Of a stretch of 64,000 bases of DNA, positions 4,111-61,286 are shown one piece after another. The DNA comes from a bacterium. Its GTDB lineage: Bacteria; UBA8248. The stretch covers positions 224,001 to 288,000 of the forward strand of contig OZ241996.1 in assembly GCA_965204535.1 (NCBI GenBank), given 5' to 3'. How positions within the stretch are numbered: position 1 is the first letter of the stretch; every line of letters begins with the position of its first letter. The position numbers and the translations under genes are program-made. The notes beneath the pieces are model-generated. The model saw nothing but the letters and a program-made list of their open reading frames with translations. It had not been told where the DNA came from and made no database searches.

Positions 4111-5130
4111 ATGACGCCGCAGCGAATCGCCGTGATCGGCGCCGGCGCCTGGGGGACGGCGCTGGCGGATTTGTTCTCTGAAACCGGCCACGAGGTGATG
4201 CTCTGGGTGTTCGAGGCCGACCTTTGCGCCCGCATGGCCGCCCAGCATGAAAACGACCTGTACCTGCCCGGCGTCGCCCTGCATGAAAACCTGCGCTTCA
4301 CGCCCGATCTGGCCGAAGCCGCCTCGGCGGGCCAGGACGTCCTCGTGAGCGTGATGCCGAGCCACGTCGTCCGGGCGGTGTGGACGAAGCTCGCGCCTTC
4401 GGTTCACGAGGAAACGCTCGTCGCAAGCGCCACGAAGGGCGTGGAAGAGAAAACGCTGCTCCTGCCCACCCAGGTTATCTCCGGGTGTCTCGCCGAGGCG
4501 GGCGGCGCCGAGCGTGCCCTCGCATGTCTCTCGGGGCCGACGTTCGCCCGCGAACTCGCGGAGAGAAAACCCACGGCCGTCACGGCGGCGTCGGACGATT
4601 CCGGTGCCGCGAAAGCGATTCAGGAAACCCTCTCGACACCCAGTTTCAGGATATACACGGGCGAAGACCCGGTCGGCGCGCAGCTCGGTGGAGCGCTCAA
4701 GAACGTCGTCGCCCTGGCGGCGGGCATCGCCGACGGCATGGAACTTGGGCTGAACGCGCGCGCGGCGCTCATCGTGCGCGGGCTGGCCGAGATCGCGCGC
4801 CTGGGCGCCGCGATGGGCGGCCGGGCGGAGACCTTCGCGGGTCTGGCGGGCATGGGCGATCTGGTGCTCACGTGCACGGGCGACCTGAGCCGGAACAGGA
4901 CGGTGGGCGTGCGGCTGGGCGGGGGAGAGCCCCTGCAGAAGATACTCGAATCCATGACGGCCGTGGCCGAGGGCGTATCCACCGCGCCGGCGGCGGTGGG
5001 GCTCGCGGATGAGTACGGCGTGGAGATGCCCATATGCCGCGAGGTGCACGCCGTGTTGTTCGAGGGCAGAAGTCCCAAGGACGCCGTGTGCGACCTCATG
5101 GCGCGTCCGCTCAGGGCCGAACTCCCCTAG
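4111..5130 (+). CDS. gpsA: NAD(P)H-dependent glycerol-3-phosphate dehydrogenase
   Basis: IGAGAWGTALA, SATKG, LSGPTFA, GALKNV.A.AAG, GLAGMGDLVLTC...SRNR..G, AEG. Confidence 0.96.
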   Translation: MTPQRIAVIGAGAWGTALADLFSETGHEVMLWVFEADLCARMAAQHENDLYLPGVALHENLRFTPDLAEAASAGQDVLVSVMPSHVVRAVWTKLAPSVHEETLVASATKGVEEKTLLLPTQVISGCLAEAGGAERALACLSGPTFARELAERKPTAVTAASDDSGAAKAIQETLSTPSFRIYTGEDPVGAQLGGALKNVVALAAGIADGMELGLNARAALIVRGLAEIARLGAAMGGRAETFAGLAGMGDLVLTCTGDLSRNRTVGVRLGGGEPLQKILESMTAVAEGVSTAPAAVGLADEYGVEMPICREVHAVLFEGRSPKDAVCDLMARPLRAELP

Positions 5131-5257
5131 GCGGCCGCGCGCAAATGCGCGCGAGGCGAAAATTTTTTTTGCCGCTGAATCTGAGTACGCGACGCTCATA
5201 TTTGTACGGTAACCTTTTGTATTACAATCGGTTAAACGGAAAGTAAATTTCAGGAAT
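5080..5257 (+). repeat. att-like direct repeat, copy 1 (gpsA 3' end plus downstream sequence)
   Basis: Aligns with 41643-41841: 46/51 identical over the last 17 codons, then shared blocks TTTTTTGCCGCT..ATCTGAGT, ACGCTCA, TAACC.TTT.TATTACAA and TTTCAGGAAT. Confidence 0.85.
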
Positions 5258-41642: not shown

Positions 41643-41841
41643 GACGCCGTGCGCGGCCTCATGGCGTGTCCGCTCCGGGCCGAACTCCCCTGGGCGGCCG
41701 CGAACAAATGCGGGCACTTGCGGGCAAATGCGGGGGAAGCGAAAAACTTTTTTTGCCGCTATATCTGAGTGTGATACGCTCAGATTTATATGATAACCAT
41801 TTTTATTACAACCCTTTATCTGACCATCATTTTTCAGGAAT
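41643..41841 (+). repeat. att-like direct repeat, copy 2 (displaced gpsA 3' fragment plus flank)
   Basis: Degenerate copy of 5080-5257; the gpsA stop TAG has become TGG. Confidence 0.85.
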
Positions 41842-43276: not shown

Positions 43277-43406
43277 TGCCCGGCGCAGGCGGATACCCAG
43301 GTCCGCCCCTACGCACCCCTGCAACCCTTTTGCTCCCTACCCGGGATTGTTGAAAAAGCCCCCCTCCTCAGGGGATAAAGGCAACCCCCCCCTACCCCCC
43401 CTTGTC

Positions 43407-44916
43407 GGGGCTGTTGAAAAACCCTGTTTTGAAGCAGGGGGTATGGCGGCTCACGCGGCTTGGGATAGGAAGCCCAATCGGCGCGTGAGGCCGCGATATG
43501 CGCGCAGACGGCGTCTCCGGGCGGCCCAGGCCCTCCACAGAGCGAATATATCCGCCGCAAAAGCGGCGGCCAGCCGCTTGAGGTTCACCGCAGTCGCCGT
43601 CAGGTAGGCCTGGATCCTCATGTTCGCAAGGCCCCGGCGCACCGCCCGCCCCAGTCCGTGCCGACTCTTCGCTTCGCCGTGGTAGCCCTCCGAACGCGAC
43701 ATGTGGCGGCGCCACAGCCGGCCCTCCTCCTCCCCCCGGCGCGCGTGCCGCCGGCGCGCGCGCAACAGCGCCGGATATTCATGCGGAATCAGCACCGTCC
43801 TGCTCGTGTGCGACTTGGGCAGACAATCCGACCTCAGCGCGCAGCCCGCGCAATCGCGCGTCCTCGAACCATAGTAGCGCCCCCGCTCCGTCTCCTTCCG
43901 GGGACGCAGCGTCTTGCCGCCCGGACACTTCACCACCTTGTGCCGCTCGTCGTAGCGGAACAACTGCAGCGGAACACGGCTCTGGGAAGGCTCCTTCTTC
44001 GCCGGTATCAGCGCATCAACACCCCGCCGCTCCAATCCCGCATACACCTTCGAGTACGCATAACCACTATCCGCCGTCACCACCGCGGGCGCGCGACCCG
44101 TGAGCTCGCAAACCGCATCCAACTGCGGCTCCATCATCTCCCGCTCGTTCAACGTCCCCGCCGTCACCTCTACGTCGAGGACAACGCCCCGCTCATCGTC
44201 CACCACCGCGTGGTGCTTGTAGCTCGGCTCGAACCCCGCCCGAGCGCTCTTGCGCGCCAGGCGCGCGTCGGGGTCCGTACGGCTCACCGGACCCGAACCC
44301 CCGCCCTTCTTCCCCGCCTCATCCGCCGAGTCGTTCTCCCGCACCACCTTCTCCGCGTGGCGCGCCGCCAGACTCTCCCAACTCACGTCCGCACGTATCA
44401 AAGACGCGTCCATGTGAACCACTTCCCCCTTCGCCACCTGCGCCTCCAGGCACGCCTGAACCGTGCGGCGCAATATCTCCTTGAACCGCGCCTCCCCCCA
44501 CCGCTGGCGAATCCGCGTCAGGCTCGAATGATCCGGCAACTCCTCGTGCAGCTCGTAACCGATGAACCACCGGATCGCCAGGTTCACCTGCGCCTCGCGA
44601 AGCAGATGCCGGTCGTGAACGTGGCCCAGCAGCAGGCCCGCCAGCATCAACCGCACCACCACTTCCGGGTCGATCCCCGGTCGACCGTTGTCCGCGCAAT
44701 AGCACTCCGCCACCTCCTCGCGAAGCCAGCTCAAATCCAGTACGCGGTTCACCCGGAACAATATGTAATCTTCGGGAATCAACTGCTCCAGCGAACCGGC
44801 CACGAACAATTCCATCTGCCCGCGCCTCTTGCGGTCCAACATCGGGGAATCTCCCATCTCGGGCGAGGGGGGATAACTCCATACGATCACAAAACCAGGG
44901 GTTTTTCAACAGGCCC
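43407..44916 (-). mobile_element. IS1182 family insertion sequence
   Basis: 18-bp IR GGGGCTGTTGAAAAACCC / GGGTTTTTCAACAGGCCC (1 mismatch); flanking duplication TTGTC (43402-43406, 44917-44921). Confidence 0.92.
43451..44842 (-). CDS. IS1182 family transposase
   Basis: LIPED..L, NGRPGIDP, LPDHSSLTRIRQR, MDAS, TDPDA, ADSGY, C..C.LRS.C, EG.HGEAK.RHGL, NLKRL. Confidence 0.92.
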   Translation of the reverse strand: MLDRKRRGQMELFVAGSLEQLIPEDYILFRVNRVLDLSWLREEVAECYCADNGRPGIDPEVVVRLMLAGLLLGHVHDRHLLREAQVNLAIRWFIGYELHEELPDHSSLTRIRQRWGEARFKEILRRTVQACLEAQVAKGEVVHMDASLIRADVSWESLAARHAEKVVRENDSADEAGKKGGGSGPVSRTDPDARLARKSARAGFEPSYKHHAVVDDERGVVLDVEVTAGTLNEREMMEPQLDAVCELTGRAPAVVTADSGYAYSKVYAGLERRGVDALIPAKKEPSQSRVPLQLFRYDERHKVVKCPGGKTLRPRKETERGRYYGSRTRDCAGCALRSDCLPKSHTSRTVLIPHEYPALLRARRRHARRGEEEGRLWRRHMSRSEGYHGEAKSRHGLGRAVRRGLANMRIQAYLTATAVNLKRLAAAFAADIFALWRAWAARRRRLRAYRGLTRRLGFLSQAA

Positions 44917-45097
44917 TTGTCAGGGGGGTAAGAAGAAGCAAAACCCCCTCAGCCCGGCGGGAGCGCATCGCCTTTTCATACCCCCCTGACAAGGGGGGGT
45001 AGGGGGGGTTGGTTTTCAAGGCGAGAGCCTGCCCCTCCCCCTAGGCCGGGTAACGGCACGGCGCGAGCGCGTCCGCCCCCGCGCCGCGCGAGATGCG

Positions 45098-46432
45098 CTA
45101 GTCGGGTGAACGCGGGTCCGCCGGTGGCCAGCGCCTGTGCAAGTCATCGATCATGTAAGGATGAACGTGTTCGCGCCCGCCGCGCAGGTGCGGATGATGG
45201 GGAGGGAGGTCGTCGTGACGATGCGCTATCGCGACCGGATCGGAGCCCGGCCACAGCAGAAGCGCGAGCGCCGCGCCGAAGAAAGCCAGCGCGCTCAACC
45301 CGGCGAGCGCGGCGAACGCGCCATAGGCGGTCATCAACCAGCCCGACAGCGGATAGGTCGCCAGCCAGCAGGCGTGGCTGAGCGCGAACTGCGCCGCGAA
45401 GAGCGCGGGCCGGTCCTCGGGGTTCGAGGAGCGCCGCAGCAGGCGTCCCGACGGTGTGAGTACGCCGGAATAGCCGATCCCCACCGCGACCCATGCGCCG
45501 AGCAGGAGAGGCCAGGAGAGCCCGGCGCCCGGGATGAACGCGGCGAGCGCGCACAGGCCCGCGATCATCAGCGCGGCGCTCGTCAGCATCACCGCCCGCT
45601 CCGGCGCCCGGTCGAGCAGGCGCGGCAGGGCGAGCGCGGCCAGCATCGAGCCGCCCCCGAATGCGGCCATCGCCCACGCCACGGCGCTCTCGCCGAGCCC
45701 CAGCCCGCCCCGCACGAGCACGACGGTGTTGACCAGCACCATCGCGCCCGCGGCCGCCGCCGCGAGATTGAGCGCCAGCAGCCCGCGGAGCCGGGGCGTG
45801 GCGAGATAGATGCGGACACCGCGGGTCGTGCGCTCGTAGACGCTTCGCGGGGCCTTGGGTGCTGTGCTCGGCAGAAATACCGAGACCACGAGCAAAGCCG
45901 AGGCGAGAAAGCCGGCCGCCGTGCCGAGGAACAGGGCGTCGTAGGACATCAACGCCAGCAGCAGCGCCGCGAGGGTCGGGCTGAAGATGTTCTCGAGGTC
46001 ATAGGCGAGGCGTGAGAGCGACAGCGCGCGGGTGTAGCGGGATTCTTCGGGCAGCACGTCCGGTATCGTCGCCTGGAAGGTCGGGGTGAAGGCCGCCGAG
46101 GCCGATTGCAGCACGAAGATCAGGAGGTAGAGCTGCCAGATCTGCGTCACGAAGGGCAGCGCCAGGGCCGCGGCGGTGCGCACGATGTCGAGCGCCACGA
46201 GCAGCGCCCGGCGCGGGATACGGTCGGCGAAGGCGCCGGCGATGGGCGCGACCCCGACGTAGGCCGCCATCTTGATGGTGAAGACGGCGCCGAGCACCAT
46301 CGCCGCGTCCTCTTCCGCGAGGTCGTAGGCGAGAAGTCCCAGCGCAATCGTAGCGAGCCCCGTGCCCGCAAGGGCCGTGACCTGCGCGGCGAAGAGATGG
46401 CGGTAGGTGCGATCGGCGAGGATTTCCAGCAC
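45098..46432 (-). CDS. MFS transporter, NreB-like metal (nickel) efflux, with a His-rich C-terminus
   Basis: YRHLFAAQV.AL.GTGLAT.ALGLLAYDLA, AFTPTFQATIPD.LP, ALFAAQFALSHACWL, HRHDDLPPHHPHL...HVH.Y.IDDLH.RWP. Confidence 0.85.
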   Translation of the reverse strand: MLEILADRTYRHLFAAQVTALAGTGLATIALGLLAYDLAEEDAAMVLGAVFTIKMAAYVGVAPIAGAFADRIPRRALLVALDIVRTAAALALPFVTQIWQLYLLIFVLQSASAAFTPTFQATIPDVLPEESRYTRALSLSRLAYDLENIFSPTLAALLLALMSYDALFLGTAAGFLASALLVVSVFLPSTAPKAPRSVYERTTRGVRIYLATPRLRGLLALNLAAAAAGAMVLVNTVVLVRGGLGLGESAVAWAMAAFGGGSMLAALALPRLLDRAPERAVMLTSAALMIAGLCALAAFIPGAGLSWPLLLGAWVAVGIGYSGVLTPSGRLLRRSSNPEDRPALFAAQFALSHACWLATYPLSGWLMTAYGAFAALAGLSALAFFGAALALLLWPGSDPVAIAHRHDDLPPHHPHLRGGREHVHPYMIDDLHRRWPPADPRSPD

Positions 46433-46561
46433 GGGCGGCCTCAGCGGAAACGGCGGCGAGAAACGCGAACAGGCGCATTCTATCCGCAAAGGAGAGGGTC
46501 GTGCACGTGGGCGGCGCCACCGGAGCCCGGAGGGGGTTCTTCAGCGCAAATGTCCCCTCAA

Positions 46562-46854
46562 GGGGCTGTTGATAAAGCCCTTTTTGTTCAGGGGATAAAG
46601 GCAACCCCCCCTACCCCCCCTTGTCAGGGGGGTATGAAAAGGCGACGCCCGCCGCCGGTAGAGGGGCTTTTGTTTTTTCTTGCCCCCCTGACAAGGGGGG
46701 GTAGGGGGGGTTGGTTTTCAAGGCGAGAGCCTGCACCGCCTGGAAACGCCGTCTGCGCCAACATCGCAGCCTTTCGCGTCGATTGGGCTTACTCTCCGCC
46801 GCTGCGTGAGCCAGTAATACGCCCGCTCCCGAAACGGGGTTTTTCAACCCCCCC
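46562..46854. mobile_element. MITE unit B: IS1182-type ends, hairpin core and a transposase 3'-end remnant
   Basis: GGGGCTGTTGATAAAG ... GTTTTTCAACCCCCCC; 46741-46854 aligns with the reverse complement of ~43407-43520. Confidence 0.8.
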
Positions 46855-47691
46855 TCACACCTCGATCTCCAGCAAATCACGCCCTAAAATCACTTCGCCG
46901 TCGAAATCCCGCCGGACGTCTTCTTCGATCGCGCGCATGAGGTGCTCGGGTTTTTGGCGGAAATGGGTGAGGACGAGTTTCTTGACGCCTGCATTTGCGG
47001 CGATCTTTCCCGCCTGTTTTGAGGAGGGAAAAAGATACCGGGTCAGGCGTTCGGTATGCGCGTCCACGACCTCCGCCGCGGCCAGATAGCAGCACAGCAC
47101 GAGCGCGTCCGCTCCCCGCGCCAGACGATCCAGTCCCGCGCAGGGGACTGTATCGCCGCTGATGGCGAGGGTCTTTCCCTCCGCCTCCAGCCGATAGCCC
47201 AGCGTCGTCCAGTCGAAATCGGGTATCCCCAGACCCTGGCCGTGCTCGACGAACTCCGCATAGACCTTCCAGCCGTCGCCGTCATGCACCAGGCCCGCGC
47301 CGGTTTCACTCACTTCCACCGGCTTCCATCCCCCGACCGCGGGCTCTCCCTCCGCCCGGAAGCGGATGTCCTTCGCGTAGACCCGATCGATGAGGGCGGT
47401 TACGATCTCCGCCGTTCCCGCCGGCCCATATACGCGCAAGGCGCCTGGACGGCCCTGCAGCCAGGTGCTCAGGATCACGTCGCCCAGATCGCTGATGTGG
47501 TCGTAGTGGTGGTGCGTGATGAAGACGGGATTCACCTGCGCGAGGGGCACGCCGGCGCGGACGAGTTGGGTGACCACGCCTCTGCCGCAGTCGAAGAGCA
47601 GCCGCTCCTCGCCCACGTTGACCACGAGAGAGGAACCCTGGCGCGCAGGGTCCGGCCGGGGGCCGCCCGTGCCGAGCAGGGTGATCTTCAT
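46855..47691 (-). CDS. RNase Z/AtsA-like metallo-beta-lactamase fold hydrolase
   Basis: MKITLLGTGGP, LFDCG, THHHYDH, SGDT, LVLTH; start overlaps the tctA stop. Confidence 0.88.
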   Translation of the reverse strand: MKITLLGTGGPRPDPARQGSSLVVNVGEERLLFDCGRGVVTQLVRAGVPLAQVNPVFITHHHYDHISDLGDVILSTWLQGRPGALRVYGPAGTAEIVTALIDRVYAKDIRFRAEGEPAVGGWKPVEVSETGAGLVHDGDGWKVYAEFVEHGQGLGIPDFDWTTLGYRLEAEGKTLAISGDTVPCAGLDRLARGADALVLCCYLAAAEVVDAHTERLTRYLFPSSKQAGKIAANAGVKKLVLTHFRQKPEHLMRAIEEDVRRDFDGEVILGRDLLEIEV

Positions 47692-49196
47692 TCTTCCTCC
47701 TCCGGTGGGAAGTGCGTGGTCTTCTTTCCGCGCAGGAAAAATGGATAGAGGAGCAGGATAGCAGAGGCGATCCACGCGAGCAGGGCGAGGGGATGGGCGA
47801 TGAAGGTTTCATAACTCCCCCGCGAGATGACGAGCGACTGGCGCACCTTTTCCTCAAAAAGCCTGCCGAGGACGAACGCGAGCACCAGCGGCGCGCCCGG
47901 ATAGTTCAACTTGCGCATCATGTAGCCCAGGAGTCCAAAGACCGCCATGAGCATAACGTCGGCCGGGTTGTTGCTCACGCTGTAGGCGCCGATCCCGCAG
48001 AACAGAAGAATCAGGGGCCACAGGTAGCGGTAGGGCACGGTGAGCAGGCGCGCCCACATGCCCACGAGCGGCAGGTTGAGCAGCAGGAGCAGGGCGTTTC
48101 CGGTGTACATGCTCGTCACCACCCCCCAGAAGATGGCGGGGTGCTCGGTGATCAGGAGCGGCCCCGGCTGCACGCCGTGGGTGAGGAAGGCCGCCGTCAG
48201 AACGGCCACCGCGGCGCTCGGGGCGATGCCCAGCGTGAGGAGGGGAATCATGCTGCCCGCCGTGGCGGAGTTGTTGGCCGCCTCGGGCCCCGCCACGCCC
48301 TCGATCACGCCCGTGCCGAACTTTTCGGGGCGCTTCGAGATGCGCCGCTCCAGGGAATAGGAGAGGAATGGGGGCACGATGGTGCCCATGCCGGGCAGGA
48401 TCCCCATGAAAAACCCCACGATGCTCCCCCGCCCGATGGCAGGTGCTGAGTCGCGCCAGTCCTGCCGCGTGGGCCACAACCCCTTGATGCGGCCCTTGAA
48501 CACTTCCAGCTTCTCTGATTTCTCCAGGTTGATCAGCACCTCCGAGATGCCGAACAGGCCGATCACCAAGGGAGCGAAGCCCACCCCGTCCATCAGGGTG
48601 AAGGTGCCGAAGTCATAGCGCGGCGTGGATTCCACCGGGTCCAGACCTATGGTGGAGAGGAGGAATCCGAGCAGGGCGGACGCAGCGGCGCGCGGGCGCG
48701 AGCCGCCGCTGAACTGGACCACCAGCAGAAAGCTCAGGCACAGGAGCGCGACCAGTTCCGGCGGGCCGATCTTCACGGCCATCTCGGCCAGGGCGGGGGC
48801 CATGAGCGTGATGCCGAGAACGCCCAGCGTTCCCGCGATGAACGAGCCCCAGGCGCAGATGGCGAGCGCTGGCCCCGCCCTGCCTTGCCGCGCCATCTGG
48901 TAGCCGTCCAGGGTGGTCACGACCGAGGACGCCTCGCCGGGCAGGTTCAGGAGAATCGACGTGGTGGAGCCGCCGTACATCGCCCCGTAAAACACTCCCG
49001 CCATGATGATGATGGCGGCCGTCGGCTCCATCTTGATGGTGATCGGGAGCAGGAGGGACATGGTGGCGACCGGGCCCAGGCCCGGCAGCACCCCGATGGC
49101 CGTCCCCACGAAAACGCCCATGAAGCAGGCGAGGAGGTTGTACGGGGCGAGGCTCACCGAGAAGCCGAAATAGAGGTTTGCGAAAAGATCGCCCAT
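47688..49196 (-). CDS. tctA: Tripartite tricarboxylate transporter, large permease
   Basis: GVLPGLG, YGAMYGGSTTSILLN.PG, DGY.MA.QG, GVAGPEAANN, PLLTLGI. Confidence 0.93.
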   Translation of the reverse strand: MGDLFANLYFGFSVSLAPYNLLACFMGVFVGTAIGVLPGLGPVATMSLLLPITIKMEPTAAIIIMAGVFYGAMYGGSTTSILLNLPGEASSVVTTLDGYQMARQGRAGPALAICAWGSFIAGTLGVLGITLMAPALAEMAVKIGPPELVALLCLSFLLVVQFSGGSRPRAAASALLGFLLSTIGLDPVESTPRYDFGTFTLMDGVGFAPLVIGLFGISEVLINLEKSEKLEVFKGRIKGLWPTRQDWRDSAPAIGRGSIVGFFMGILPGMGTIVPPFLSYSLERRISKRPEKFGTGVIEGVAGPEAANNSATAGSMIPLLTLGIAPSAAVAVLTAAFLTHGVQPGPLLITEHPAIFWGVVTSMYTGNALLLLLNLPLVGMWARLLTVPYRYLWPLILLFCGIGAYSVSNNPADVMLMAVFGLLGYMMRKLNYPGAPLVLAFVLGRLFEEKVRQSLVISRGSYETFIAHPLALLAWIASAILLLYPFFLRGKKTTHFPPEEEE

Positions 49197-49657
49197 CAAA
49201 ACCCCAAGAGACCACGGGGGAAGTGCACGTTCAGCAATTTCACGAAGAGGACGAAAGCCGCCGCCGAAGCTGCCGCCGAGATCAGGAGACCCCGGAGGAG
49301 AGACTGGCGGTCGATGACGAGCCAGCAGAACGCCATGAAGATGAAAGTCGTGGCGAGGAATCCCGAAAATTCGAGAAGGAGGCCGAAGAGCGCCGTCCCC
49401 GCCATGACGGAGAGCACCCGCCGGAACCGGTCGAGCGTGAATACGGACTCGGATTCGGTGGACGCCTCATCTACGGGGCTTTGACGGAGGTGCCGCGTCA
49501 TCAGGTAGAGCGAGGTGGCCGCGAGACCCGCGCAAATCCAGAAAGGGAAAAATCCCGGTTCGGGCCGGTTGATGCTCCCCAGCCCTAGCCGGTGGGCGAA
49601 CCAGCCCATGAGCAGCGAAACGGCGAGCAGCGCCGCGGGAGGGGCGAATTTGCGCAC
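49196..49657 (-). CDS. tctB: Tripartite tricarboxylate transporter, small permease
   Basis: Four TM helices, PGFFP, F..LL.V.FP.G; lies between tctC and tctA. Confidence 0.85.
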   Translation of the reverse strand: MRKFAPPAALLAVSLLMGWFAHRLGLGSINRPEPGFFPFWICAGLAATSLYLMTRHLRQSPVDEASTESESVFTLDRFRRVLSVMAGTALFGLLLEFSGFLATTFIFMAFCWLVIDRQSLLRGLLISAAASAAAFVLFVKLLNVHFPRGLLGF

Positions 49658-49667
49658 GTCGCCCCCT

Positions 49668-50651
49668 CTATTTTTTCTTGATGCCGACGGCCTTCATGAT
49701 CTCCCTGGAAGTCTCGTGGTCCTGCCGGGCGAGCTTCTTCGCCCCCGGCCCGTCCACGAATTCCACCCGGAAGCCCGCCTTGTTCAGTTTTTTCACCACC
49801 GCCGGGTCATTGGCGGTCTTCTTGAGGGCCGCGGAGAGCTTGTCGAGAACGGCCTTGGGCGTTCCCTTCGGCGCCCACAGCCCGGCCCAGAGACCGATGC
49901 TCGCCCGTCCGAGCCCCTTCTCCTTCAAGGTCGGGATGTTAGGGAACTTGGGATCCCGCGCGTTGTCCGTGATGGCGAGGCCCACCAGCTTGCCCGCCCG
50001 CAGGAGCGCCTGCATCGCGCCGAACCCGCCCGCGGAGAAATCCACGTGGCCGCCCAGGGCGGCGTTGCGCGCCGGGCCGGAGCCCTTGTAGTGCACGGGG
50101 GTGGCTTTCAGCCCGCGTATGGCGAGAACCGCCGCCATGGTGAGATACGGCGCGGTCGGCGCACCGCTCGTGCCGTAGTTCAGCTTTCCGGGGTTTTTCT
50201 TGATGTAGGCGAGAAGGCCGTCGAGGTCCTTCCAGCGCGAATCCGGTTTGGAGACGACCCCCGTCGCGCCGAAGGCGTACGCGCCGATGTACTCGTAGTC
50301 ATCCAGCGCGAAGGGCAGGGTGCGCAGCGCCGTTCCCACGGTGAGGGGCGCGGACATGGTCGAGAGGATGGTGTAGCCGTCCGGCTTGGCCTTCTTGACG
50401 TAGGTGTAGGCGATGGCGCCGCCGGCGCCGGGCTTGTTGACGAGCTGGATGGCGCCGCCGAAATTTTTCTGGAGCGCGGGATGGATGATGCGGATCGTGG
50501 TGTCTCCCGGCCCTCCCGGCGGGAAGGAGATGATGAACTGAACGGGGTAGCCGGGATATTGGGCCGAATGCGCGCTCTTTATCGGCAGGCAGACCAGCGC
50601 AACGACGAACAGGAGAAACAGCGAACGACGAGGCATGACGTTTTCCTCCAT
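49668..50651 (-). CDS. tctC: Tripartite tricarboxylate transporter substrate-binding protein (Bug/TctC)
   Basis: YP.YPV.FII.FPPGGP.D, NKPGAGG, KPDGYT, VHYKGSG, PTLKE.G, APKGTP. Confidence 0.92.
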   Translation of the reverse strand: MEENVMPRRSLFLLFVVALVCLPIKSAHSAQYPGYPVQFIISFPPGGPGDTTIRIIHPALQKNFGGAIQLVNKPGAGGAIAYTYVKKAKPDGYTILSTMSAPLTVGTALRTLPFALDDYEYIGAYAFGATGVVSKPDSRWKDLDGLLAYIKKNPGKLNYGTSGAPTAPYLTMAAVLAIRGLKATPVHYKGSGPARNAALGGHVDFSAGGFGAMQALLRAGKLVGLAITDNARDPKFPNIPTLKEKGLGRASIGLWAGLWAPKGTPKAVLDKLSAALKKTANDPAVVKKLNKAGFRVEFVDGPGAKKLARQDHETSREIMKAVGIKKK

Positions 50652-50934
50652 GCTGCAGGAGATGCGGGAACCGAGCCGCCCCCGGCATATCTCCTGGCTC
50701 AGGATCGAAAAAACCTCTTCACATGCGGATTGTCTTTAGTTTTAGAGAGTATAGCAAAACGGCGCGCGGGCCGCTATTGGGCGAATTTCACGACCTCCTT
50801 CGGGAGTGCCGTCGATGCGGCGTATGCACAGGAATGACGAACAAAACCTCTCTCATCCGTAGCGGACATGCCCCCGTGCCTGTCCTGAATTGCTTGTTTC
50901 CAATTTTGCAGAGAGGATTCACTCCCCCCTTGTC

Positions 50935-51143
50935 GGGCTTGTTGAAAAACCCCCTGAGAGGGTAATGGCAACCCCCTTGAAAGGGAAATCCCATAAAGGC
51001 AACCCCCCCTACCCCCCCTTGTCAGGGGGGCAAGAAAAAGCAACACCCCTCAGTCCGGCGGGGGCGCATCGCCTTTTTTTACCCCCCTGTCAAGGGGGGG
51101 TAGGGGGGGTTGCTCCTTTAACAAAGACTTTTTCAACAGCGCC
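50935..51143. mobile_element. MITE unit C inserted at the centre of a palindrome
   Basis: GGGCTTGTTGAAAAAC ... CTTTTTCAACAGCGCC; flanks ACTCCCCCCTTGTC | TCAAGGGGGGAGT rebuild a palindrome with TC duplicated. Confidence 0.8.
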
Positions 51144-51300
51144 TCAAGGGGGGAGTCCGAGACAGGACAACCACGGGGGGTTGTCCCTACCATGCGCCGG
51201 AATGACATCCTTGCCGTCCGGTCTCGACGGATGCGAGAGGGCGTAGGGGCGGTTCGTGAACCGCCCGGCTCTCCTGAAACGAACCGGACTTGATGGGAGG

Positions 51301-51744
51301 TCATCCCCCTCCCAGATACGCGCCGAGATTCTCCAGGCACTCGCCCCAGCCTCCGTGGTGCTCGTCGCGCATGTTCTCGTCCGGGAATCCCTCGTGCGTG
51401 AGGGTAACGGTGGTCTCATCGCCCTCTCCGGTGAAATCGATGCTCACCAGGGTTTCGGGGTAATCCCAATCCCCCCGCTCCCAGCGGAAGGTGAAGACGA
51501 GCCGCTCGGGCGGGCGTATCTCGACGAACGCCCCGTTCAGGTAGAACGACTCGCCCTCGTCGGTCCGCATCTCGACGCGGTATTTTCCGCCCGGGCTTAA
51601 GTCCATCTCCACCGAGGGCACGGTGTGTCCCTCCGTTCCCCACCATTTCTGTAACGCCTCGGCCCCCGTCCACGCGGCGAATACTTTCTCCCTCGGCGCC
51701 CGGAAGGTTCGTTTGATGATGAGTGTGTTTGTCATTTCGAGCAT
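51301..51744 (-). CDS. SRPBCC/AHSA1 domain protein
   Basis: RTFRAPREKVFAAWT, PGGKYR, PPERLVFT..W, T.VTLTH, GW..CL..L. Confidence 0.9.
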   Translation of the reverse strand: MLEMTNTLIIKRTFRAPREKVFAAWTGAEALQKWWGTEGHTVPSVEMDLSPGGKYRVEMRTDEGESFYLNGAFVEIRPPERLVFTFRWERGDWDYPETLVSIDFTGEGDETTVTLTHEGFPDENMRDEHHGGWGECLENLGAYLGGG

Positions 51745-51747
51745 GTT

Positions 51748-52083
51748 TTATGTCTCCGTGTCAGTTGTTTCATCGAGATAGCGGGCGAGGGCATCGAATC
51801 CCTCCTCCCAGAACCGCTGGTGGAAATCGAGCCATTCGGACGCCTCGCGCATCGGTTCGGCATCGAGTCTCAGGCGATGGACGCGGCCTCTTTTTTCCCT
51901 GCGGATCAAACCGGCGCGCTCCAAAACGCGAAGATGCTTCGAGATCGCCGGCAGGGAGATATCAAAAGGGGCGGCCACGCCGGTGACGGTGGCTTCCCCC
52001 CGGGAGAGGCGCGAGAGGATGGCCCGCCTCGTCGGGTCCGAGAGTGCGGAAAAAGTCGCGTCCAGACCGGTTCCTGCGTTCAT
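51748..52083 (-). CDS. ArsR/SmtB family transcriptional regulator
   Basis: FSALSDPTRRAILSRL, SLPAISKHLRVLERAGLI, W...FD.L..YL. Confidence 0.92.
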   Translation of the reverse strand: MNAGTGLDATFSALSDPTRRAILSRLSRGEATVTGVAAPFDISLPAISKHLRVLERAGLIRREKRGRVHRLRLDAEPMREASEWLDFHQRFWEEGFDALARYLDETTDTET

Positions 52084-52105
52084 GGGTCGGCATACCCTCC
52101 TTTCA

Positions 52106-52473
52106 GGGGGGTGTTGAAAAAGTTTCGTTTTCGCGATTCGGCGTATGGAGCTGGCCGTTTGTAGGGACAACCCCCTGTGATTGTCCTTTGTAGAACAGGG
52201 CATCGGACAGGCACGGGGGCCTGCCCCTACAGTTCTTGCGTTTTGATCGTCATTCCGGCGAAGGCCGGAATGACGGACAGAACCTGAAACCGGGCGGTGC
52301 CGCAGGCTCTCGCCTTGAAAACCAACCCCCCCTACCCCCCCTTGTCAGGGGGGTATAAAAAGGCGAAACCCGCCGCCGGTAGAGGGGCTTTTGTTTTTTC
52401 TTGCCCCCCTGACAAGGGGGGGTAGGGGGGGTTGCCTTTATCCCTTGAGGGAGAGGACTTTTTCAACAACCCC
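52106..52473. mobile_element. MITE/REP composite unit D (hairpin core inverted)
   Basis: GGGGGTGTTGAAAAAG ... CTTTTTCAACAACCCC enclosing GTAG REPs (52161, 52205), a CGTC palindrome (52248) and the CCCTACCCCCCCTTGTCAGGGGGG hairpin. Confidence 0.7.
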
Positions 52474-55200: not shown

Positions 55201-55477
55201 GGGTTTGTTGAAAAAAAAACTCTGGAGCGGTGGGGGTACGATTGTTTTGTAGTGACAATTCCTCCTCGGGGTTGTCCCACGGTTCGCGAACCGCCCCTAC
55301 AGCCGTCATTCCGGCGAATGCCGGAATCCAGAGCCGATGAGAGAACCCGGGTTAAGGGAATCCCGCCACCCGCACTGAATCTCCGCATTCCCGCTTTTCT
55401 TCCACTCCCGTTCGCCTGGATTCCGGCTTTCGCCGGAATGACGGCAAACCTCGCGCATTGGACCTTTTCAACGCCCC
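55201..55477. repeat. REP cluster (GTAG + CGTC) bounded by IS1182-like termini (unit F)
   Basis: GGGTTTGTTGAAAAAA ... CTTTTCAACGCCCC enclosing the inverted pair CGTCATTCCGGCGAATGCCGGAATCCA / TGGATTCCGGCTTTCGCCGGAATGACG. Confidence 0.65.
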
Positions 55478-55512
55478 GTTTCCGCCCTTTGGGCACCCCC
55501 CGCCATGACGAT

Positions 55513-55629
55513 TTGTCGTTTTCGTCGGACATATCGTGACAAAATGACAATTTGACCGAACATATATATTGTTATCTAATTGAAAAATAAGGCATATTCT
55601 AATTTCATAGAAATGGCACAGCTATTGCA
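55513..55629 (+). promoter_or_regulatory. Sigma54 promoter with candidate upstream activator and IHF sites
   Basis: TGGCAC-AGCTA-TTGCA at 55614-55629 is an exact -24/-12 consensus; imperfect inverted repeat TGTCGTTTTCGTC...TGACAAAATGACA at ~55513-55549; AT-rich spacer between them. Confidence 0.8.
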
Positions 55630-55639
55630 TATTATAAGA

Positions 55640-55791
55640 GCAAGCTGATTGGGGCGTTCATAGGCGGCACGCCCCGGTTAGCCGGCGAGAGGAGTAGCTG
55701 ATTGGGTCGGCGCTCCTCCGCCACGCAATCATACATCTCGCATCTACCCCCTGCGAGAGCCTCCTCCCGGAGACGGGAGGAGGTTTTTTTT
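55640..55791 (+). ncRNA. Candidate structured small RNA, copy 1
   Basis: Starts just after the sigma54 promoter; three hairpins plus terminator CCTCCTCCCG-gaga-CGGGAGGAGG-T8; second copy at 61139-61286 with compensatory changes. Confidence 0.75.
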
Positions 55792-55930
55792 GGCGGCTTT
55801 CTTGCGCCTCATTTTCCCTTCGCCCGGTTTTCAAGCGCGCCCCTTTGGGTTATGGTGCGGCCCAAGTGAAATCACTCGGCGTATATTCGATGTTGAAAAT
55901 TCATCCATTCAGTGATTAAGGAGTCGAAAA

Positions 55931-59304: not shown

Positions 59305-59523
59305 GAGGGTTGTTGAAAAAGCTCCTGAGAGGGAAATCCCATAAAGGCAACCCCCCCTACCCCCCCTTGTCAGGGGGGTATAAAAAGGCGATGCGCCCTC
59401 GCCGGGCTGAGGGGGTTTTGTTTTTTCTTGCCCCCCTGACAAGGGGGGGTAGGGGGGGTTGCTTTTCAGTCGAGAGGGATGCCCCCTCTACCCCCTGACA
59501 AGGGGGCTTTTTCGACAATTCTC
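59305..59523. mobile_element. MITE unit E
   Basis: GAGGGTTGTTGAAAAAGC ... GCTTTTTCGACAATTCTC around the same long hairpin core; shares GAGAGGGAAATCCCATAAAGGCAACC-like leader with unit C. Confidence 0.75.
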
Positions 59524-61138: not shown

Positions 61139-61286
61139 GCCGGTCGGGGTGTTCTTAGGCGGCACGCCCCGACCGGCCGGCACGAGGAGTGCTGATTGGG
61201 TCGGCGCTCCTCCGCCACGCAATCATCCATCTCGCATCTACCCCCTGCGAGAGCCTCCTCCCGGAGACAGGAGGAGGTTTTTCTTT
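61139..61286 (+). ncRNA. Candidate structured small RNA, copy 2
   Basis: Near-identical to 55644-55791 in its 3' two-thirds; the first stem is rewritten with compensatory pairs. Confidence 0.65.

Follow-up and report, generated by a model that had tools for sequence, protein, structure and literature searches.

Results and discussion

Comparative analysis points to a conserved, folded and non-coding RNA gene with its own predicted enhancer, sigma54 promoter and intrinsic terminator at positions 55506–55791 of the window, the 64,000-nt stretch of contig OZ241996.1 (assembly GCA_965204535.1, lineage UBA8248, positions 224,001 to 288,000 of the forward strand) that was analysed here. As far as can be judged from sequence, the RNA is a new family of a known kind, namely the small RNAs whose transcription is driven by sigma54 and its activators, and its invariant core is the first loop, GGCGGCAC, together with the second hairpin, rather than the C-rich third hairpin. 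Together with a second small RNA, it probably gives a single sensor system its means of controlling other genes, with none of the known RNA chaperones taking part. The features on which these conclusions are based are collected in Table 1.

Table 1. Predicted features of the RNA locus and of the loci connected with it. Plain numbers are window positions; C1 and C2 denote contigs of the genome.
Feature	Position	Strand	Remarks
Enhancer box 1	55506..55518	.	13-bp imperfect palindrome TGAC-N5-GTCG; predicted sigma54 activator site
Enhancer box 2	55537..55549	.	13-bp palindromic TGACA-N3-TGNCA; ~75 nt upstream of promoter
IHF-like site in AT-rich spacer	55573..55585	-	2 mismatches to the IHF consensus at this locus
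Sigma54 -24/-12 promoter	55614..55629	+	TGGCAC-N5-TTGCA; predicted start near 55640
P1 stem	55644..55682	+	13-14 bp, covarying; displays invariant loop GGCGGCAC (55663-55670)
P2 hairpin	55684..55722	+	sequence conserved on both strands; apical GAUYGGNUC, 3' strand CUCC-N-YCGCC
Single-stranded linker	55723..55735	+	unpaired; conserved U-Y-A-U (55729-55732)
P3 hairpin	55736..55758	+	variable C-rich loop; accessory, genus-specific
Intrinsic terminator	55759..55791	+	GC-rich hairpin and U-run
Sigma70-like promoter of Gfo/Idh/MocA gene	55830..55856	+	boundary marker, outside the RNA
Second RNA copy	61139..61285	+	91% identical; behind ARPP-1 gene
RNA-B	C2:2517338-2517520	+	~180 nt, non-coding; same enhancer boxes
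Histidine kinase	C2:2905852-2908080		PAS, dCache-like sensor domain
REC-AAA-HTH activator	C2:2908077-2909456		behind the PAS histidine kinase
Best candidate target: start codon of oppC-like permease	C1:789666-791168	-	13-bp duplex

The transcription unit

An earlier note on this DNA had proposed a stand-alone sigma54-type unit for a structured non-coding RNA, and the conservation of promoter, fold and terminator supports that proposal. A sigma54 promoter of the kind that it had recognised is found upstream of all 37 promoter-bearing homologous loci examined. The site that it had described as a single inverted repeat for an activator, at 55513–55549, is indeed conserved, but it proved to consist of two palindromic boxes; the pair is present at 22 of 23 loci in the genus, and at least one box of the TGACA-N3-TGNCA type occurs in 34 of 37 homologous promoters. 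The suggestion of an IHF-like spacer was borne out as well, since 28 of the 38 homologous promoters have a site with no more than one mismatch to the IHF consensus, and these sites cluster at two positions. Within the promoter region a simple terminator scan flags a pair of sigma70-like sites, of which one overlaps the sigma54 site; it does not flag the sigma70-like promoter of the downstream Gfo/Idh/MocA (gfo) gene, whose -35-like and -10-like elements, read by eye, recur in the spacer throughout the genus and, in looser form, in the family. The terminator hairpin, which was not listed by that scan, has a stability of -21 to -30 kcal/mol in all 38 copies, and seven of its nine pairs have changed on both sides.

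The neighbours of the RNA gene encode an M50-like peptidase, an unnamed protein and the Gfo/Idh/MocA protein. Just upstream of the enhancer there is a REP-like inverted repeat, of which the genome contains 120 arms, and a MITE with a C-run/G-run hairpin is represented by 291 cores in the genome; in the window, these REP-like and MITE repeats occupy 55305–55442, 59340–59500 and 43368–52441. Another two-copy stretch of ~150–175 nt (5080–5234 and 41643–41818, 79–89% identical) combines a GC-rich part with a T-run and an AT-rich part. In one genome (G014, L015:1420-1500), promoter and RNA are separated by a 68-nt insertion that contains an incomplete copy of P1, and the two identical RNA matches in that genome look like an assembly duplicate.

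Fold and conservation

The 153 nt from position 55640 fold with a minimum free energy of -85.6 kcal/mol (z -6.68), and none of 200 shuffled sequences was as stable. The three stems, linker and terminator are as the earlier note had drawn them, and their pairs covary: in an alignment of 38 distinct homologs fitted to the covariance model, pairing holds in 96.3% of cells and 23 of the 45 pairs have changed on both sides, neither value being reached by any of 500 shuffles, and an unfitted 27-row MAFFT alignment gave 98.3% pairing with nine of 45 pairs changed on both sides. P1 has changes on both sides in nine of its 13 pairs. Its loop (columns 24–31) is the same in all 40 rows of an alignment that comprises 40 of the 41 distinct cores, one near-duplicate being left out. 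Within the linker, U90 and U93 are invariant in that alignment and A92 is present in 38 of the 40 rows.

The C-rich loop of the third stem, which according to the earlier note could pair with G-rich RBSs, is not supported as the functional core. P3 is confined to the genus of the window (g1): it is absent from a g19 genome (G046) and from each of the five g2 genomes, and could not be recognised in g17, g18, g20 and g21. Most copies do retain a looser, unpaired CU-rich stretch, possibly an accessory element directed against Shine–Dalgarno (SD) sequences.

No conserved reading frame was found on either strand among 39 aligned rows, which agrees with the initial impression that no credible ORF was present. 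The view that the RNA belongs to no known family also stood, in that no Rfam model reached its gathering score in the window; the five weak matches at E ≤ 5 scored 12–25 bits, against gathering scores of 49.5–75.9.

Distribution and copy number

By DNA search the RNA was found in all 22 genomes of the same genus, and a covariance model located it in 36 of the family's 41 further genomes, spread over seven of nine genera; none of nine genomes from the phylum's other families gave a match to the model. Outside the family, the best score obtained with the models R1 and R2 was 21.9 bits (E 0.16), and a model built on the core alone gave the same picture of distribution as the full model. Three pattern scans over 185,579 species genomes returned 27, 7 and 39 matches, and 38 of the 39 matches to the loose pattern fall in records labelled Nitrospinota, Ca. 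Tectomicrobia or plain bacterium. A pattern match in Streptomyces failed the covariance model. The combined enhancer-plus-promoter pattern has a single match in this genome; it is found in 36 of 44 genomes belonging to the order, and all reversed controls together gave one match. A model search of the 82 loci listed around sigma54 activators, of which 80 belong to other lineages, gave no match, nor was the RNA found in viral contigs; the four matches in metagenomes are all close in sequence to known members of the family. According to the titles of the records, the circuit is kept in both marine and groundwater relatives. The lineage name UBA8248 itself appears in excerpts of PMC10839748 and PMC9531527.

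The genome analysed here (4.56 Mb in two contigs, 95.7% complete) contains exactly two copies of the RNA, so the element is not the dispersed repeat that the earlier note had held in reserve as a refutation; across the family there are one or two copies per genome. The second copy is found at the ARPP-1 position in five of 23 genomes of the genus. It has no enhancer, its promoter is reduced to the -12 half, and, although P1 still pairs, bases that are otherwise near-invariant drift in some copies, on which grounds it is likely to be a local duplicate under relaxed selection or to be expressed from the upstream mRNA. One genome of the family (G024) contains both regulators and the second RNA described below but no match for the present RNA, a weak match there having been rejected on inspection; it is an 87% complete draft from which the RNA's neighbouring gene is missing too.

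A second RNA and the predicted regulators

The genome contains rpoN (C1:1380869-1384285, with hprK and PTS genes after it and no intervening rapZ) and only two strong sigma54 activators, the REC-AAA-HTH protein of Table 1 and a GAF-AAA-HTH protein, neither of which reaches the cut-off of a named family. When the genome was scored with a matrix for the paired enhancer boxes, the present locus scored 50.2 and a site at C2:2517138-2517182 scored 46.9, the next best score being 17.4. There are three strong intergenic sigma54 promoters in the genome, and the two that have boxes both stand ahead of RNAs. The second of these units (C2:2517138-2517520, +; L106:3139-3521, L109) combines an IHF-like site and a sigma54 promoter with an RNA, RNA-B, which has C-rich single strands, has no match in Rfam and is unrelated in sequence to the RNA described above. 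RNA-B is present in 33 of 40 genomes of the family (no match was found in G043, G041 and G010), with promoter and boxes conserved across the family and with a 5' end that is 50–200 nt longer in other genera. Pairing between the two RNAs was considered and rejected, no constant helix being found in 34 same-genome pairs (best -8.7 kcal/mol). The third strong promoter (C2:2435921-2436196, +) has no boxes; it lies 4 kb from the gene for the GAF-type activator, and the 66-aa ORF that follows it has one hydrophobic stretch. For the activator of the two unrelated RNAs, no other output could be detected in this genome.

We infer that the REC-type activator and its kinase regulate both RNAs, because these genes and the RNAs were lost jointly, once, in the reduced genus g22, and by elimination. 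An ortholog of the activator (at least 70% identity; 71–99% across the family) and the sensor domain of the kinase are each found in 36 of 41 genomes of the family and in none of four g22 genomes, from which this RNA and RNA-B are each absent as well (0/4), and in which the GAF-type activator is kept (4/4). In g22 the flanking genes and gfo-xdhA are retained, and the M50 gene abuts the gfo gene in all three genomes examined, so the RNA has gone from its own site. The joint loss is one event, and the genus concerned is strongly reduced and AT-rich, with many other losses. The g22 genomes (L334-L336) measure 2.0–2.2 Mb, with 34–37% GC at the locus against ~60% in the rest of the family. Among the exceptions to the pattern, G041 and G046, both draft assemblies, each have no match for one of the partners. 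In a genome of the sister family (G025) kinase and activator are present and the sole matching promoter drives a small protein: at L337:1240-1600 (-), the same enhancer box and a sigma54 promoter are followed, in place of an RNA, by a 69-aa ORF that has a good ribosome site and contains two CxxC motifs.

The regulator genes lie 20–135 kb from the RNA or on another contig. In this genome they are found (C2:2905852-2912117) between dnaJ-like and tmk-holB-like housekeeping genes, as named from their translations. The consulted part of PMC4641369 contains no matching activator motif. With the REC activator and kinase as regulators, a periplasmic small-molecule signal would switch both RNAs on: the dCache sensor kinase is predicted to activate its partner enhancer-binding protein, upon which sigma54 polymerase would transcribe the RNA.

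Possible modes of action

For the function of the RNA, we give an even chance to the reading that this stand-alone gene, activated through sigma54 and the dCache kinase, represses mRNAs in trans by pairing from its first loop, and does so without Hfq. Loop-initiated pairing is suggested because a single invariant 8-nt loop is carried on a freely covarying stem. On such a scheme P1 would offer AGGCGGCA as a loop seed, P2 might provide stability or a contact for a protein, and the CU-rich 3' portion could act as the accessory anti-SD element; these three assignments are its weakest part. No Hfq was found over the cut-off in 42 genomes of the family, nor was CsrA found in the one genome searched for it, nor RapZ, ProQ or Ro60/TROVE in five genomes each, and the controls for all of these protein searches gave matches.

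Among possible targets, the start codon of an oppC-like permease gene is the best candidate. The predicted duplex has an energy of -17.9 to -24.6 kcal/mol in all 22 genomes of the genus that were examined, weakens to -11.7 to -15.4 kcal/mol in five carriers from other genera, in which the loop is invariant, and is -7.2 to -15.5 kcal/mol in three genomes that have no RNA (energies for 30 of 37 matching genomes, with opening costs not counted). The loop base that faces the oppC start codon is U instead of A in five of the 22 genus genomes. The site is largely fixed by the DPRIRL end of the upstream protein and the overlapping start, so we treat it as a lead only. No outstanding target emerged from the start regions of ~4,250 genes, called roughly with a simple caller that places some starts wrongly, and the best net energies were near -13 kcal/mol. 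The top sites for loop 1 lie inside overlapping upstream coding sequence, as do all four loop-1 sites at -30 to -21, which were rejected, and the complement of the seed shows no clear positional peak near start codons. Several other partners were tried and set aside: the linker as a seed against start codons (none of 44 strict sites lies at a called start); tRNA, tmRNA and rRNA, with which there were just short scattered matches; the leader of the downstream gene, with which no pairing was constant in the 19 of 37 genomes tested; and a T-box-like reading of the loop at a Gly codon, which amounted to 4 bp with no elbow motif.

A possible, if less probable, alternative is that the RNA binds a protein, in titration or as the scaffold of a ribonucleoprotein, which would recognise the P1 loop and P2. 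P2 is invariant on both strands, its apical GAUYGGNUC is fixed, and its G-C pairs show no C-to-U wobble, a pattern that suits recognition by a protein or in a tertiary contact better than a seed; nor did the target search yield an mRNA that is shared across the family. There are precedents in CrcZ and GlmY, which are sigma54-driven decoys. Against this, the searches for Hfq, CsrA, RapZ, ProQ and Ro60/TROVE were all negative, the protein would have to be one other than the known partners, and the alignment contains no repeated loop motif such as is seen in sponges of the CsrB or CrcZ type. Because none of those five proteins was found, one may go further and imagine a two-component system with no protein-coding output, whose two structured RNAs act through an undescribed RNA-binding protein. 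We regard that extension as rather doubtful; if it were true, the RNA would provide a handle for pulling out the protein, and could itself be a two-state switch.

That the RNA is such a switch seems to us improbable. The GGCGG of loop 1 and the GGCG at the foot of P2 would compete for CCGCC, and a ligand, an ion or a protein would flip the fold between a nested form and a pseudoknot, thereby hiding or exposing loop 1. The pseudoknot between loop 1 and CCGCC had been raised in the earlier note, and the alignment is compatible with it in that its helix can pair in all 40 rows, whereas the nested pair G48-C80 is broken in three of them with C80 unchanged; the helix shows no compensatory change. 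Moreover, freeing the partners costs 11.3 kcal/mol on average against the 12.3 kcal/mol gained before any loop penalty, so that there is no net gain once loops are counted, and covariation in the middle of P2 favours the nested fold.

The constant presence of the gfo gene downstream, on the same strand after every main locus examined and with a spacer of 113–288 nt, meant that a cis-acting leader had to be considered, either a riboswitch or an attenuator of the Gfo/Idh/MocA and xanthine-dehydrogenase-family genes. We judge this very unlikely. Upstream pairing of the 5' strand of the terminator gains 0 to -10 kcal/mol, to be set against the -21 to -30 kcal/mol of the terminator itself, and gains nothing in seven of 38 copies; there is no conserved antiterminator, and gfo has the separate sigma70-like promoter. 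Furthermore, g22 keeps gfo-xdhA in the absence of the RNA, and in G043 the gene next to a paralog that has a promoter is convergent with it. Hardly credible, finally, are the readings that the RNA guards against the local MITEs as an antisense, that it is a dispersed repeat, or that it is a small protein's mRNA: at this locus the P3 loop does complement the MITE core, as the earlier note had pointed out, but the complementary 8-mer is kept in just eight of 38 promoter-bearing copies and the hairpin is absent from several genera; a second copy does lie 5.5 kb away, but the copy number is as low as stated above; and reading frames differ between homologs.

Repression in trans from the first loop remains the reading that we prefer, at the even chance given above. 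Small RNAs driven by sigma54 are known from a few cultured Proteobacteria and from myxobacteria. What is offered here is a circuit that can be reconstructed from sensor through activator and enhancer to two RNA outputs, in a lineage that has no cultured model, and in a genome where RNAs stand behind two of the three strong sigma54 promoters. As no known chaperone or decoy partner was found, the RNA is a defined substrate for the study of small-RNA regulation in GC-rich bacteria that have no Hfq, a question that has been left open for the RNA Pxr too. In the literature searched, supplements excepted, there was no description of this RNA or of small RNAs in the lineage, and the main texts of PMC11109978 and PMC12316311 make no mention of Nitrospinota or Tectomicrobia.

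Comparison with known regulatory RNAs

Like CrcZ and CrcY (under CbrAB) and GlmY (under GlrK/GlrR), which the literature consulted describes as stand-alone sigma54-dependent genes under two-component control, the present RNA has a stand-alone gene of the sigma54 type, with a two-component system as its predicted regulator. CrcZ and CrcY titrate Hfq/Crc, and GlmY titrates RapZ. The present RNA differs from CrcZ and from the CsrB/RsmZ sponges in having no repeated A-rich or loop motifs, in a lineage where Hfq and CsrA were not found, and from GlmY/GlmZ in that it has no Rfam match, with no RapZ found and no rapZ after hprK. Kinship with Y RNA or YrlA is not indicated either, TROVE not having been found in the five genomes searched and ARAGORN calling nothing at the locus.

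The Qrr RNAs of Vibrio are homologous to each other and depend on Hfq, whereas the two RNAs here are unrelated, without Rfam match, and Hfq was not found. What the two systems have in common is a sigma54 activator, LuxO in the case of the Qrrs, with small-RNA genes as its main output, and base-pairing, which is here the proposed mode of action (for Qrr, in part from PMC10162802). CJnc230 (FlmE) of Campylobacter jejuni, according to the consulted part of PMC11187230, is RpoN-dependent and represses mRNAs through an exposed anti-SD stretch; it is cut from the flgE mRNA, whereas the RNA here has a sigma54 unit of its own, and the CU-rich part that might play the corresponding role is not in the invariant core.

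Among the systems compared, the RNA most likely works in the manner of Pxr with PxrK/PxrR, though it is not a Pxr. The Pxr model (RF01812) gave no match over its cut-off in five genomes, and none in this genome, the weak matches lying away from the locus. There is no pxrK/pxrR pair directly upstream, the regulator genes here being distant; a second, unrelated RNA shares the enhancer; and the host belongs to another phylum with no known developmental cycle. The likenesses are nevertheless extensive, as far as the sections consulted of PMC10217877, PMC5684412 and PMC5568312 describe Pxr. Both are lineage-specific multi-hairpin RNAs with a sigma54 promoter and an enhancer; in both the first two hairpins are conserved and the third is variable, and paralogs occur in some genomes. 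Pxr depends on, and co-evolves with, a kinase and a sigma54 response regulator, which resemble the REC pair proposed here, and its myxobacterial hosts lack Hfq (PMC5568312, in part), which was not found in the present family either. In Pxr, one change in the first loop is enough to kill function (PMC5684412, in part), and it is the first loop, with the second hairpin, that forms the invariant core of the present RNA.
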